Below the pieces are notes generated by a model. The model made no database searches and was not told where the DNA came from. It saw only the letters and a list, made by a program, of their open reading frames with translations. This document shows, piece by piece, positions 45,354-59,086 of a DNA stretch of 64,000 nt (the stretch's first letter is position 1; every line of letters begins with the position of its first letter). The stretch is taken from NCBI GenBank assembly GCA_963662465.1, contig OY759599.1:4128001-4192000 (forward strand). Direction: 5' to 3'. The stretch is from Desulfatiglandales bacterium. Its GTDB lineage: Bacteria; Desulfobacterota; DSM-4660; Desulfatiglandales; Desulfatiglandaceae. The position numbers were made by a program, and so were the translations under genes.

Positions 45354-45447
45354 ATGATTAAGAAAATCGGTTTATTGTCTGCACTGCTGACCTTCTTACA
45401 TTACGATGACCGGGGATAAGACGTGCGAGGTCAAGCGAGCAAAATGA
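45354..45447 (+). pseudogene. Internally deleted member of the small secreted protein family
   Basis: Strong RBS, then MIKKIGLLSALLT joined out of frame to YITMTGDKTCEVKRAK*, matching the C-terminus of 57831-58214 (FYIEIKGNKCEVKRAK*). Confidence 0.7.
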
Positions 45448-45515
45448 TCGCCGTCATCTGCTCAAAGAGCAGACCGGCGGGAGGCGTTTTTATCTATATT
45501 CAGGAGGGCAAACTT

Positions 45516-45959
45516 ATGAAATGGACAACAATTTTTGTAGCAGCGGCAATACTGGTCATTTCCTCCGGCATCACGTATGCGGAGAATGGACAAGGTCAAC
45601 TCCAGGGAAAAATGATTGAAGTGAAAATCACTAATGAAACCAATTACCGCGTAATAGCACGACTTACAGATCATTATTGCATGTATGACGTAAACAAAAA
45701 CAAACATTTTGACATCGCCCCCGGGGGCGTAGCACAAATCAAAGCCGAAACCAAAGCCAGCGGCGCGTGTTTTTTGTGTGAGAGCCGCATGACCTATTTT
45801 ATACATGTTGTGCAACCCAATAGTTCACCCATAGTCCTTGGAGAATGTAAAATAAAGAACCCAAGCATGAAATGGTATGAGTGGCAATGCCTGGATAAAC
45901 GCGTAGGCGATTTTGAAATGAAAAACAGTCGTTATAACCTGTTTATAAGGCAAAAATGA
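45516..45959 (+). CDS. Small secreted Cys-containing protein
   Basis: RBS AGGAGG, signal peptide ending ITYA, VKITNETNY and five Cys; a distant relative of the family below. Confidence 0.8.
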   Translation: MKWTTIFVAAAILVISSGITYAENGQGQLQGKMIEVKITNETNYRVIARLTDHYCMYDVNKNKHFDIAPGGVAQIKAETKASGACFLCESRMTYFIHVVQPNSSPIVLGECKIKNPSMKWYEWQCLDKRVGDFEMKNSRYNLFIRQK

Positions 45960-45964
45960 CAGAC

Positions 45965-46615
45965 GAGGAGGTGATAATCAATCCGTTGTTTTTTTGAGCA
46001 GGATCTGCATGCCGGCAATGGCGGCCACATAAAAAACGGGGTGAATCGAAGGGCGACGGTTCTCCGTGACCCCCAAAGAAAATTGAAAGGAGAGAAGACA
46101 ATGAAGCGTATCGAAAAGTTGGGCCTTTTGGCGGTTTTGATCGCATTTTCCATGTTACTTGTGGCTGGAACCGCGTTTTCTGAAAAACCCGGTCCCACCG
46201 CGTATCCAAAAGTGAACATCAAAAATTCCACCCCTTTCAGCGTTCAAGGTAAAGTTTCCTACAATAGCGGGCTTTGTAAAGATGACAATTATGGCATGGG
46301 GCCATGGAAAGAATGGACGGCAAACAGCCGCGGGGCGTGTTTGGTGAAGCAAATAACCGCCAGCATCTCAACCCCTCAAGGCGCCAAGGCCGCAAAAGCC
46401 TATACATCGAGCGGCACTTCTTACAGCCAGTTCGTAATCGTTCAAACAAAAGAAAACCCGCTGGAATTTCAAGTCATCAGACGAAATTAGGGTTCGATCT
46501 CATTGGATTCGCATGGAGATGATGATGTCGGCGGTGGCCGGGAATCTTCTGACGCCCTGCTCACCGCCGACAAAAAAGCGTCATCCGTCTGCCGATCGGT
46601 GTGCCGCAATTCCGG
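45965..46615 (+). repeat. ~650-bp direct repeat, left copy
   Basis: The upstream leader, gene and downstream ~120 bp all align with 58321-58973. Confidence 0.85.
46101..46490 (+). CDS. Small secreted protein of unknown family (paralog of 58454-58846)
   Basis: Signal peptide, then YPKVNIKNST...Y.SG.CK.DNY...W...SRG.CLV..ITA...TSYSQF. Confidence 0.85.
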   Translation: MKRIEKLGLLAVLIAFSMLLVAGTAFSEKPGPTAYPKVNIKNSTPFSVQGKVSYNSGLCKDDNYGMGPWKEWTANSRGACLVKQITASISTPQGAKAAKAYTSSGTSYSQFVIVQTKENPLEFQVIRRN

Positions 46616-46619
46616 CTTA

Positions 46620-48083
46620 TCATTGTTGAATTTTCGTGACAAAATCCCACGGAGTTTTGTCATAAAAGGTTTTATCATCAGCATCAACTGAATGCCATTG
46701 TTTATCCGAGGGCCAACTCCCGTCAGCCTGTGCATCATTGTTGATTGCCCAAACCGCTACACCTTTTGGAAAAGGAGAAAGTGTCTTCAGCTCAGCAGCA
46801 ATCTGCGGCGCATAATCCATACCAAACCAGTGAGGGTCTCGCCCGTATGCCCCATCTGAAGAAGGGAATCCAAGTATCAGCTTATCCGTCAGATCAATGC
46901 TCTCTTTCCAATAGCGGATCATATTTGCGTAAAATGATTTTATGAAGCCGATATCATTTTCGTAAACAATCGGATCAACTTTCGGGTCGCAATCAACACT
47001 GTCTCTGCAAATGTATGATAAGGCCCCGAAATATTCACTGCCTCCCGGCTGGTTGTAAAGCTGCACAAAAACATAATCTACCAGACCCGCATCCAGCAAT
47101 TTTGTATAAATGTTAGGGCCATAATAAATTGCGGGTGTATTCGGTTCTTGACCATTATAATTTGTAACCGGAATCACATAGGGGTATTCCGGTGCAATAA
47201 CGACCTCATATCCACTTTCCCTTAGCTTCTGCGCAATGTTCACGATATTGGTGAATGCCTGATCGGTTCTTTGGTTGATGATACTGCTCTGTTCAAGATC
47301 AAAATTGACGCCGTCATAACAGATTCCGTGGTCATTGCATAATGCATTCAATTGATCTACAATCAATTTGGCGGGGTTATTGTTTTCGGTAAGAACGAAA
47401 TCGCAACCATATGCCCCTCCGAAAGCCAGATATACTTTTGTGTTGTTTTTAACCGCGATTTGAAAAGCTGTTTCGCTGATATTCCCATGCCATTCGGTAT
47501 CGAAGCTGAATTCACCTTTTCCATTGAGACATGCGAAGCAGATATTAATTGAATTATATCCATTTTTGATCGCATCTTTGAAAAGTTGAAGGTCCGCGGC
47601 ATCACCACGGTAATAGGTGTAACCCGAGATCACCTGCAGTTTGGCGCTCCCTTCCACCGTTGTAAAATCCCAGGTCCCGGTATCATCGATGCCTTCATAG
47701 TTACGGCCGAACTTATCGTCGAAAGCAGTCTCACTCACCAGGACGTAATAGCCCGTTCCGAATGCCAGATCTGACAGCGGATCAATCGTTATGGTATGGG
47801 TCCCGGAGCCCGTGACCCGGTCTCCGGGGACATCCAGGACTTCCACCGTCAGGTTGTCTACGCTCCGCTTGATCGTGACCGATCCGCCATCAGCGAATAC
47901 TTCCTCGGAGAAAGTCATGACCAGGTTCGTGTCCACCGCCACCCCGGTGGCATTATCCGCGGGTGAAAGCCCGATGGCCGTGGGGGCCGGGTTTTGGCCA
48001 TCATCCCCCCCGCCGCAGCATGTGAGAAAAAAACCGGCCGCAACCAGCATCATGAAGCTGAAAACCTTTTTTTTATACGACAT
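46620..48083 (-). CDS. Lipoprotein with Ig-like (Big_5-type) domain and GH18 chitinase-like domain
   Basis: Lipobox FLTCC, SPADNATGVAVDTNLVMTFSE, LAFGGA, DGVNFDLE, VFVQLYNQ and GVAVWAIN. Confidence 0.85.
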   Translation of the reverse strand: MSYKKKVFSFMMLVAAGFFLTCCGGGDDGQNPAPTAIGLSPADNATGVAVDTNLVMTFSEEVFADGGSVTIKRSVDNLTVEVLDVPGDRVTGSGTHTITIDPLSDLAFGTGYYVLVSETAFDDKFGRNYEGIDDTGTWDFTTVEGSAKLQVISGYTYYRGDAADLQLFKDAIKNGYNSINICFACLNGKGEFSFDTEWHGNISETAFQIAVKNNTKVYLAFGGAYGCDFVLTENNNPAKLIVDQLNALCNDHGICYDGVNFDLEQSSIINQRTDQAFTNIVNIAQKLRESGYEVVIAPEYPYVIPVTNYNGQEPNTPAIYYGPNIYTKLLDAGLVDYVFVQLYNQPGGSEYFGALSYICRDSVDCDPKVDPIVYENDIGFIKSFYANMIRYWKESIDLTDKLILGFPSSDGAYGRDPHWFGMDYAPQIAAELKTLSPFPKGVAVWAINNDAQADGSWPSDKQWHSVDADDKTFYDKTPWDFVTKIQQ

Positions 48084-57830: not shown

Positions 57831-58214
57831 ATGAAGAAAATATTTTCATTATCACTTTTGACCGCTGTTTGCATACTGTCCGTACCAGCGCTTGCTGAAC
57901 AGGGTAATAAGCAGACCGAAAAATCTGTGAAAGCCTACAATCCGGTAACGATTGCAAATAAGACGCCGTATGCCGCAAGCGGACAAGTGAAATATACGGG
58001 TCTTTGGGGCCGGCAACCCTATTCAATACCCCCCAATGGCGGCTGGACTTCCCCCGACCCGCGCGGCCTGTTATGTGTGGGTTTTATCAACGCGACGCTT
58101 GATCGGCCGGGCGCGCCCATTGAGTGCAAAAAATATTCATCCCCGGCAACCTCATATTCCCAGTTCTACATTGAGATTAAAGGGAATAAATGTGAAGTCA
58201 AGAGAGCAAAATAA
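57831..58214 (+). CDS. Small secreted protein of unknown family
   Basis: RBS AGGAGG, signal peptide, VTIANKTPYAASGQVKY, W...PRGLLCVGFINATL and TSYSQF. Confidence 0.85.
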   Translation: MKKIFSLSLLTAVCILSVPALAEQGNKQTEKSVKAYNPVTIANKTPYAASGQVKYTGLWGRQPYSIPPNGGWTSPDPRGLLCVGFINATLDRPGAPIECKKYSSPATSYSQFYIEIKGNKCEVKRAK

Positions 58215-58281
58215 TCGTCGTGATATGAGGGGCTCGGTAATTGTCAAACAAGGTCCTGGAAATGAAGCGATTCATCAATTC

Positions 58282-58335
58282 AATCTGTAGCAGGGGAGGA
58301 GGTGATAATCTGTAGCAGGGGAGGAGGTGATAATC
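58282..58335 (+). repeat. Exact 25-bp tandem duplication containing GGAGGAGGTGAT
   Basis: aatctgtagcaggggaggaggtgat x2, then aatc. Confidence 0.9.
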
Positions 58336-58973
58336 AATCCGTTGCTTTTTTAGGAAGGTCTGCCTATGGGCCATTGAGGCACATAAAGAACGGGGTGGAT
58401 CGCAGGCAGACGGTTTTCCGAGACCCCCAAAAAAATTGAAAGGAGAGAAGACGATGAAGCGTATCGAAAAGTTGGGCTTTCTGGCACTATTGATGGCGTT
58501 TTCCATGGTACTTGGGACAGGACCCGCGTTTTCTGAACAACCCGGTTCTTCCAATTATCCAAAAGTGAACATCAAAAATTCCACCGCTTACAGCATTTCA
58601 GGCAAAGTTTTGTACAAAAGTGGGGTTTGCAAAAATGACAATTATGGCATGGGGCCATGGAAAGAGTGGACGGCAAGCAGCCGGGGGGTGTGTCTGGTGA
58701 GCAAAATAACCGCCGACGTCTCAACCCCTAAAGGCACCAAGGCGGCAAAAGCCTATACCTCATCAGTCGGCACTTCTTTCAGCCAGTTCGTAATCATTCA
58801 AACAAAAGATGATCCACTTGAATTTGAGGTAAGCAGACGACCATAGCGTTCGCTCACATTGGATTCGGATGGAAATGATGATGCCGGCGGTGACTGGGAA
58901 CAGTCTGACACCTTGCTCACCGCCGACTGAAGAAGCCACATCCGTCTCACGGTTCCCGAGCCGCAAATTCCGG
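58321..58973 (+). repeat. ~650-bp direct repeat, right copy
   Basis: Aligns with 45965-46615. Confidence 0.85.
58454..58846 (+). CDS. Small secreted protein of unknown family (paralog of 46101-46490)
   Basis: Closely similar protein: MKRIEKLG...YPKVNIKNST...DNYGMGPWKEWTA.SRG.CLV. Confidence 0.85.
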   Translation: MKRIEKLGFLALLMAFSMVLGTGPAFSEQPGSSNYPKVNIKNSTAYSISGKVLYKSGVCKNDNYGMGPWKEWTASSRGVCLVSKITADVSTPKGTKAAKAYTSSVGTSFSQFVIIQTKDDPLEFEVSRRP

Positions 58974-59040
58974 GCTCATGATACTCAAGTATTGAATTAC
59001 CCTGTTTATCCATGAACCTTTCTGACATACTTGCCCATCA
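58966..59040. repeat. REPIN/MITE-like element, copy 3 (right end missing)
   Basis: aattccgggctcatgatactcaagtattgaattaccctgtttatccatg...catacttg. Confidence 0.75.
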
Positions 59041-59041
59041 T

Positions 59042-59086
59042 ATTGAGTTTCAGGGAAATGATTGCGAAGTCAAGAGAACAAAATGA
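59042..59086 (+). pseudogene. C-terminal remnant of another small secreted family member
   Basis: IEFQGNDCEVKRTK* compared with IEIKGNKCEVKRAK* in 57831-58214. Confidence 0.7.

Follow-up and report, generated by a model that had tools for sequence, protein, structure and literature searches.

Why does a sulfate-reducing bacterium keep four chitinase genes side by side with a weakly toxin-like giant lipoprotein and several small secreted proteins, and what does it do with chitin? The question is raised by an island of 11 intact genes in a 64,000-nt window of a Desulfatiglandales genome (source genome G000; all coordinates are positions in this window, G000:C1:4128001-4192000). An original prediction, made from the DNA letters, had taken the island for an antagonistic or host-interaction system, possibly an undescribed one. 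The island proves to be a patchwork assembled from cassettes of one or two genes and not a conserved system. Judged by gene content, the locus is not a classical nutritional one, because the genome is without detectable nagA, nagB, GH20 and GH94 genes of N-acetylglucosamine (GlcNAc) use. Our best explanation, tentative and held at slightly less than even probability, is an accessory kit, put together one cassette at a time, with which the cell would break into chitin-walled eukaryotes, or what remains of them, while not consuming the sugar itself.

The source genome is a single contig of 8.16 Mb with 49.5% GC and 100% completeness, and a dsrA match over the cut-off points to a sulfate-reducing host. 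The 11 intact open reading frames (ORFs) lie within 45516-58846; all are preceded by a ribosome site of GGAG type and encode a signal-like N-terminus. Genes smA and smB on the plus strand are followed by GH18a, giant, GH18b, GH19a, propeller, smC and GH19b on the minus strand and by smD and smE on the plus strand. The export signals claimed for all 11 genes are borne out: a crude signal-peptide rule accepts 11/11 island genes, against 735 of the 6057 long ORFs genome-wide (12%), and under this rule the island is the longest run of signal-positive ORFs in the genome. Four of the 11 (GH18a, giant, GH18b and propeller) are Cys lipoproteins by eye. An NCBIfam search named none of the 11 proteins. 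As predicted, there is no transporter or regulator among the 11 genes. The region appears to be assembled correctly: run X1, which probably is the source sample, has contigs that cover positions 40010-59900, one of them spanning 49590-58664, and are identical to the window in the listed pieces except for two gaps of two bases each.

Two chitinase folds, each present twice, had been expected, and the two glycoside hydrolase family 18 (GH18) and two GH19 proteins agree with this. All four keep the catalytic Glu, and hydrolysis of chitin is predicted. GH18a (46620-48083, minus strand) is a lipoprotein with an N-terminal Big_5 immunoglobulin (Ig)-like domain and a GH18 barrel. It aligns to the chitinase of PDB entry 9i2p (E 8e-7), with no Pfam match for the barrel. 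GH18b (51401-52402, minus strand) is a single-domain lipoprotein chitinase of Chi60/ChiC type with the motif DGLDIDLE. It matches PF00704 over the cut-off (E 1.5e-10) and Chi60-type structures (E 6e-12), and shows a weak match to an EndoS barrel (E 0.0018). The features of GH18 membership, namely the DxxDxDxE motif, the TIM barrel and a family match, are present in both. In catalytic motifs and best structure-sequence matches the two proteins resemble the Moritella Chi60/ChiC-type enzymes (PDB entries 4hmc, 4axn and 9i2p), but they are lipoproteins without chitin-binding modules, and GH18a has Asn in place of the second Asp (DGVNFDLE).

GH19b (55900-57384, minus strand) has a signal peptide, a domain of ~150 residues and a plant-type GH19 domain. 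It matches PF00182 with E 5e-28, and the GH19 features are present, including the motifs QETTGG, YEE and GRGPIQLSWN. The ~150-residue domain (residues 40-190; 56800-57270, minus strand) recurs in six or more further proteins encoded by the genome; it is N-terminal here and C-terminal in several of the others. Against PDB, GH19b matches plant-type chitinases with E 7e-28 and the best endolysin with E 8.5e-5. Peptidoglycan, which the original prediction had kept among the targets, is unlikely for GH19b because the sequence is of chitinase type rather than endolysin type. GH19a (52762-54030, minus strand) carries a signal peptide and appears to be a divergent, Cys-rich GH19. Its Pfam match is sub-threshold (E 2.3e-4), each of its six weak PDB matches is a GH19 (best E 0.046), and the alignment retains both Glu positions. 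Identity to GH19b is 24%, and the motif reads GMGPTQL instead of GRGPxQL. The catalytic motifs and best matches of GH19b are those of plant class I/II enzymes (PDB entries 7v92 and 2baa); GH19a is a strongly diverged variant.

Pfam finds no chitin-binding module in the island proteins. The claim that such modules are missing therefore stands for the island but not for the genome, where a third, stand-alone GH18 gene 1.9 Mb away (G000:C1:2269709-2271619, plus strand) encodes two Ig-like domains and two carbohydrate-binding modules (CBMs) of type CBM5/12. In genome G010 the corresponding locus holds a 90% orthologue of this gene. Five chitinase genes were found in the 8.2-Mb genome, four of them within 11 kb. 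Orthologue comparisons of non-synonymous to synonymous rates (dN/dS) point to purifying selection on GH18a, GH18b and GH19b (dN/dS 0.16-0.34). The ratio is 0.16 for GH18a (against locus L058), 0.29 for GH18b against L034 (0.53 on 11 changes against L058) and 0.34 for GH19b, with 0.11 for the MacB permease for comparison.

The absence of GlcNAc catabolic genes, noted before for the locus, extends to the whole genome. Profile searches of this 100%-complete genome gave no GH20 or GH94 match. No nagA (best 26 versus 226 bits) and no nagB (51 versus 237 bits) is over the cut-off; a SIS region occurs only in GlmS, and motifs typical of ROK, NagA and AnmK found nothing in the genome. The set of a chitin utilisation locus (GH20 or GH94, with NagA and NagB) is thus not found in this bacterium. 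A PF01182 match was rejected as NagB and reads, by its motifs, as 6-phosphogluconolactonase. Three PF01522 deacetylases were rejected as candidates for secreted chitin deacetylases, their contexts being of lipopolysaccharide/exopolysaccharide type or membrane.

Chitinases recur in the relatives. Among the 10 other genomes of the genus, GH19 occurs in five, GH18 in four and either or both in six; in the family, GH19 occurs in 14/104 other genomes and 8/45 genera, and in 0/14 control genomes. The ET glutamate and the second Glu are present in all 16 of the GH19 proteins examined in relatives, and a lipobox is seen by eye in 14/16. A nagA match over the cut-off is found in 0/11 genomes of the genus. 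It also has no match in any of the 14 relatives with chitinases that were searched (G010 and 13 of 14 GH19-positive genomes, the exception being G099 with a short and weak match), in which a control is over the cut-off in 8/14 and GH20 is found in 1/14. Chitinases are present in many relatives and no genes for burning GlcNAc are found, and breaching rather than eating chitin is therefore the likely use. The original prediction is supported in part: its non-nutritional side gains support from these missing genes, and the toxicity on its antagonistic side stays conjectural. The genus also has enzymes of GH5-GH18-3xCBM2 and GH18-CBM2 architecture, and the CBM2-bearing enzymes would suit mixed cell walls. 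Those in G002 and G005 include secreted GH5-GH18-3xCBM2 fusions of ~1,200 residues (L037 143-3787, minus strand; L038 10658-14371, plus strand); nagA was not found there. Many GH19 lipoproteins of the family end in a Cys-rich module, RCG..W.DA...C..CC (L005, L008, L012, L059, L060, L062-L065). It has no Pfam match in the one member scanned (L059) and is possibly an undescribed chitin-binding domain.

The mosaic structure is visible both in relatives and in the DNA itself. In a 96%-identical strain (L058), the order permease-smA-smB-GH18a-giant-GH18b is preserved along the full length of an 8.7-kb contig. GH18b and giant adjoin in G002 (91%) and occur together in run X5. The propeller gene and GH19a form a two-gene insert in G004, with 52% and 48% orthologues and a 19-bp gap, and GH19b stands alone in L004 as a 61% orthologue. 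Twelve other GH19 neighborhoods and nine of 10 GH18 neighborhoods contain no other island gene. The idea of a single conserved system finds no support here, since the co-occurrence check gave only one- or two-gene pieces in relatives. The condition named beforehand as refuting the original prediction, that nothing co-occurs elsewhere, is half realised: two-gene pieces recur, but the full set does not.

Within the window, a 3,039-bp direct repeat (left copy 34799-37837, 97.8% identical to 62770-65808; the right copy occupies 62770-64000 and continues to 65808 past the window) brackets a 25-kb block in which the island is accompanied by a transposase-like ORF, an exporter and some further genes. 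By eye, the repeat contains sulfatase-like and radical S-adenosylmethionine maturase-like genes, the right maturase copy being shorter. The transposase-like ORF (38863-39807, plus strand) is putatively, by its motif, of IS91 type. The adjoining segment 39601-39958 recurs elsewhere in the genome at 92%. A 650-bp direct repeat with smB (left copy 45965-46615, plus strand), 82% identical to 58321-58973 with smE, brackets the minus-strand core. A palindromic intergenic element of ~96 nt, presumably like repetitive extragenic palindromes, lies at 52527-52622, with more copies at 55153-55244 and a degenerate one at 58967-59045. Complete pairs of palindrome arms number five in the genome, two of them in the island. 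Cassette elements with mirrored arms were also looked for; the arm profiles gave 60 and 32 matches genome-wide and none in 37000-63000.

The giant gene (48207-51227, minus strand) encodes a 1006-residue lipoprotein. A lipobox is followed by a hydrophobic helix (residues 94-112), a coiled coil and helical bundle, a tectonin/YCF48-like propeller (~480-760) and a variable C-terminal part. A search among 1.84 billion representatives returned eight matches. P0053, P0055 and P0056 were discarded as homologues, being repetitive coiled-coil or NACHT proteins. The remaining relatives are giant itself and four homologues (P0050, P0051, P0052 and P0054), all with a lipobox-like Cys, and the two longest homologues share the layout of helical part plus propeller. 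The N-terminal domain is found in 2/209 genomes of the order, all other matches there covering only the propeller. A word-index search yielded nothing beyond a 96% relative, and no match came from plasmids.

The label "toxin-like" is weakly supported: helical toxin-type folds recur among the matches of giant, but all sequence and fold matches are sub-threshold. P0054 matches Vip3A_N (PF12495) with E 0.00095 and 19.6 bits, the cut-off being 25, and Vip3 chains with E 3.6-4. The Vip3Cb1 fold match has Z 11.1 and a root-mean-square deviation (rmsd) of 4.6 over 136 aligned residues, on a model with a predicted local distance difference test (pLDDT) score of 44 and below the tool's helical-bundle mark of ~13. 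Further matches in the 50 best folds are jumbo phage killer B (Z 10.7), Cry8Ba2 (9.6), latrotoxin (9.1), Cry7Ca1 (8.3), PirB (7.9) and IPD113 (7.6). In giant and in three of the four distant homologues, no 19-mer is more hydrophobic than the aligned hydrophobic helix; in Vip3/Cry/latrotoxin-type toxins this helix is the membrane entry site. The N-terminus of giant thus weakly resembles domain I of these toxins, below every threshold. The likeness to Vip3, Cry and α-latrotoxin (PF12495; PDB entries 9efg, 9h9b and 9go9) lies in the succession of hydrophobic helix, coiled coil, helical bundle and then repeat or beta domains, while giant differs by its lipobox, by having no match over the cut-off and by only 5-12% identity in structural alignments. 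Pore formation by giant may be given about one chance in three. Between close strains, dS is 0.52 for residues 861-1006 versus 0.05 for residues 1-480, which suggests that the C-terminal end has been exchanged.

The "family of small proteins" is true of four of the five: smB, smC, smD and smE are one family, but smA is unrelated. smB (46101-46490, plus strand) encodes a predicted exported beta-sandwich protein of ~95 residues and smE (58454-58846, plus strand) is its duplicate, with 74% identity. smD (57831-58214, plus strand) is 36% identical to smB, and the divergent smC (55277-55654, minus strand) is 32% identical to smD. smA (45516-45959, plus strand) encodes an orphan of 147 residues, predicted to be exported, with five Cys. 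Searches found only its own 98% cluster, and the small-family profile does not match it (E 1.2). Its orthologue comparison shows one synonymous and three non-synonymous changes. Two remnants flank the intact genes, a small-protein gene at 45354-45447 (plus strand), in which a signal-peptide start ends early and is followed by the C-terminal heptapeptide of smD, and, by sequence comparison, the 3' end of another smD-like gene at 59057-59086 (plus strand). The AlphaFold model of the small family has a pLDDT of 93. Its best fold match is 2mca, an uncharacterised protein (Z 9.7, rmsd 3.1, 92 aligned; Foldseek E 8e-4). Domain 4 of cytolysins (Z 7.4-7.7) was rejected as its fold, being a common beta-sandwich match.

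The small-family profile matches 1/209 genomes of the order. Homologues occur in Paenibacillus, in 41 Piscirickettsia plasmid records and in five viral contigs; a homologue falls in unnamed clusters of the Atlas. The 41 plasmid records, of Piscirickettsia salmonis, place a homologue with a signal peptide amid insertion sequence elements, and a low-GC phage contig has one between head genes; these two loci are L104 7902-8285 and L101 7866-8285. The small proteins appear to behave as mobile accessory genes. The propeller-like lipoprotein (54049-55089, minus strand) belongs to an unassigned family. Its label survives only as a fold read by eye from W/G repeats, because the gene has no Pfam, NCBIfam or PDB match.

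Upstream of the island lies an operon of exporter type on the plus strand, which ends 340 bp before smA. It encodes a TolC-like outer membrane efflux protein (40206-41858; PF02321 E 1e-36), a membrane fusion (adaptor) protein (41881-43320; HlyD_3 E 2e-9), an ATP-binding cassette (ABC) ATPase of MacB/LolD type (43317-43985; Walker motifs, with a cluster member annotated as ABC ATP-binding protein) and a MacB-like permease (43988-45175; MacB_PCD E 1e-31, FtsX E 6e-20). Close orthologues of the adaptor (E<=1e-60) are found in 0/10 other genomes of the genus and 4/104 of the family. Export of the island proteins by this adjacent pump is plausible; three secretins in the genome are alternative routes. 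The operon, with its four components directly ahead of genes for small Sec-exported proteins, recalls the Aat system (AatPABCD with CexE/Aap), known from enteric bacteria, with an Lnt-like component and substrates starting GGGNS in the available part of PMC7943197. Across 40206-45175 the four-part operon layout of Aat is present, the likeness being one of generic families. The defining Aat features are absent here: no AatD/Lnt-like gene lies in the block, the single Lnt-like match in the genome being at C1:3672311, and the five small proteins are predicted, by eye, to begin with Glu rather than Gly once mature. A homologous exporter that is 38-57% identical is found in G092:C78 (L072, 3706-13891), where TolC, adaptor, ABC ATPase, permease and Lnt are followed by four small genes. 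The signal peptides of these four end before GGG, and two of the genes are interrupted. By analogy, this locus is a candidate glycine-acylating secretion system beyond the enteric bacteria of PMC7943197, as far as its available text goes. Four other homologous exporter loci, two of them on short contigs, have no Lnt or small-gene neighbors.

How would an accessory kit for breaching chitin work? From the genes described we infer a chain of steps. All 11 proteins would be exported by Sec and four would remain lipid-anchored. The surface would be reached via the adjacent TolC-MacAB-type exporter, a secretin system or vesicles. GH18 and GH19 enzymes would then cut the chitin of fungal walls, cysts, diatom fibres or cuticle debris, and the gain would be the contents (lipids, amino acids, fermentation products) or a weaker competitor or grazer. 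In the weakest step, giant may also damage membranes on contact, the propeller and the variable C-terminus serving for binding. Several points weigh against this reading. The dN/dS is 0.74 for GH19a and 0.72 for propeller, and the island enzymes are without Pfam chitin-binding modules. For giant itself, Pfam gives no Vip3A_N match at E<=1, Foldseek finds nothing at E<=0.001 with the model of pLDDT 44, all fold Z-scores are below ~13 and a designed protein ties for the top, and the A2 profile finds no toxin in PDB at E<=10, with propeller/lectin and coiled-coil matches only. In the five contexts viewed, small-family homologues stand alone amid transposases or phage genes, with no chitinase. The absence of nagA from the 14 relatives has limited weight, as these genomes are 66-99% complete and kin, so not independent. 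In the source genome, motif matches to four PIG-L, one HPr and one EIIB proteins, and a GH3 gene adjoining a nucleotidyltransferase and a kinase gene, leave another GlcNAc route possible.

The last cluster, presumably NagZ-MurU-AmgK wall salvage, leads to the main rival, an indirect form of nutrition. As public goods, the chitinases would nourish fermenters and the sulfate reducer would oxidise the acetate, H2 and acids that these release, and/or the enzymes would provide GlcNAc for building the cell wall via NagZ, AmgK and GlmU without NagA, the other genes being passengers. AmgK is listed as an N-acetylmuramic acid/GlcNAc kinase in the available part of PMC13046382, and in anoxic chitin enrichments Desulfobacterota live off the products of fermentative degraders (PMC13374861, as far as available), a downstream role with which the idea agrees. 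The CBM-bearing chitinases of the genome and genus, including the third GH18 conserved in G010, also look like polymer degraders. Cross-feeding or wall-sugar salvage does not explain why the chitinases lie amid small secreted proteins and a toxin-like lipoprotein, or why most GH19s of the family are lipoproteins without Pfam chitin-binding modules, and the 11 genes include neither transporter nor regulator; we regard it as possible, at clearly less than even probability. The pairing of GH18b with giant in G002 and X5, and the synteny of the permease-to-GH18b half in L058, would also suit a weapon of co-functioning parts, with chitinases to open the wall or cuticle, giant as pore-former, the small beta-sandwich proteins as binding partners or effectors and a two-step, Aat-like export through the adjacent TolC-MacAB-type pump. 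The G092:C78 exporter, whose neighbors are Lnt and small proteins starting signal|GGG (the Aat signature of PMC7943197 in the part available), and the weak likeness of the small fold to domain 4 of cholesterol-dependent cytolysins point the same way. Beyond the 96%-identical strain, however, no relative has more than a two-gene piece, the other exporter loci are without such neighbors, the exporter here has no adjacent Lnt and small proteins predicted to start with Glu, the secretins offer other routes, and the cytolysin match is within the chance range of beta-sandwiches. Such a weapon is unlikely. Equally improbable, to us, is the bolder proposal that one family of sulfate reducers in sediment attacks living chitin-walled eukaryotes, with surface-anchored GH19/GH18 enzymes, in this lineage an undescribed lipid-anchored Vip3/latrotoxin-like pore-former that has exchangeable binding domains and kills by contact, and an Aat-like two-step export outside Enterobacterales.

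The target may also be other than chitin. GlcNAc glycans of the bacterium's own exopolysaccharide or biofilm matrix, glycoproteins or the peptidoglycan of neighbors would fit the lipid anchoring, the lack of chitin-binding modules in the island, the EndoS-barrel match of GH18b and the strong divergence of GH19a; the conserved, closely spaced propeller-GH19a pair could then be an enzyme with its immunity or anchoring partner. Plant chitinases are far closer to GH19b than endolysins are, the best matches of both GH18s among structures are characterised chitinases, and relatives have CBM2 and CBM5-12 chitinases, all of which makes a non-chitin target doubtful and somewhat less probable still than a weapon. 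The repeats, the transposase-like ORF and the gene remnants of this plasticity zone, the different contexts of every piece elsewhere and the dN/dS of ~0.7 for GH19a and propeller are what an insertion hotspot would leave if it gathered secreted-protein genes with no common purpose and under little selection. Such neutral accretion is very improbable in view of 11/11 export-type genes against a 12% background, four of five genome chitinases within 11 kb and three of them under purifying selection. The accessory kit for breaching chitin stays the best explanation.

Chitinases beside toxins are known from insect pathogens; Yersinia entomophaga Yen-Tc reportedly comes with Chi1/Chi2, and Bacillus thuringiensis Cry/Vip3 toxins are said to be accompanied by chitinases. 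The island is similar in that chitinases are encoded beside a large helical-bundle toxin-like protein. It differs in having no Tc subunits among the 11 genes, in a gene set that is not conserved, in an anaerobic sulfate-reducing host and in giant being a lipoprotein with a tectonin-like propeller that is weakly Vip3-like. Chitin utilisation loci of Vibrio, Serratia and Bacteroidetes have several secreted endo-chitinases of two families, and so has the island, but GH20, chitobiose phosphorylase, nagA, nagB, a transporter and a regulator were not found with the queries used. In partly accessible literature, marine bacterial GH19 enzymes are under study for antifungal use. A literature search, with incomplete coverage of subscription journals, gave no report of chitinases in this sulfate-reducing group; the word "chitin" is absent from the main text of PMC6129605 as far as available, and the available part of PMC8959706 mentions it once, for fungal staining. 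Sulfate reducers are regarded as terminal oxidisers that await polymer breakdown by fermenters (PMC13374861, part available). A family that repeatedly has secreted, mostly lipid-anchored chitinases, yet no known GlcNAc catabolism that could be found, points to direct contact, in anoxic sediment, with fungi, protists or the remains of animals, or to an unrecognised first-step role in chitin turnover. Two results merit further work: the occurrence of chitinases across the family without nagA, and the giant lipoprotein, which is rare. The island as one fixed system is unsupported. Giant and the small beta-sandwich proteins represent uncharacterised families, and the Aat-like locus of G092 is a separate lead on glycine-acylated secretion.

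Other genes of the neighborhood are as follows. Right after the island, 59126-60320 (plus strand) encodes a Cupin_5 protein with a lipoprotein-like N-terminus and then a deaminase, with relatives family-wide. A glycyl-radical-enzyme-like gene (family by eye) lies in pieces at 61805-62755 and ends at the 3-kb repeat. Defence genes that by eye resemble bacteriophage exclusion (BREX) genes (Lon-like, PglZ-like, methylase) adjoin the block, on G000:C1 ~7-25 kb past the window end.

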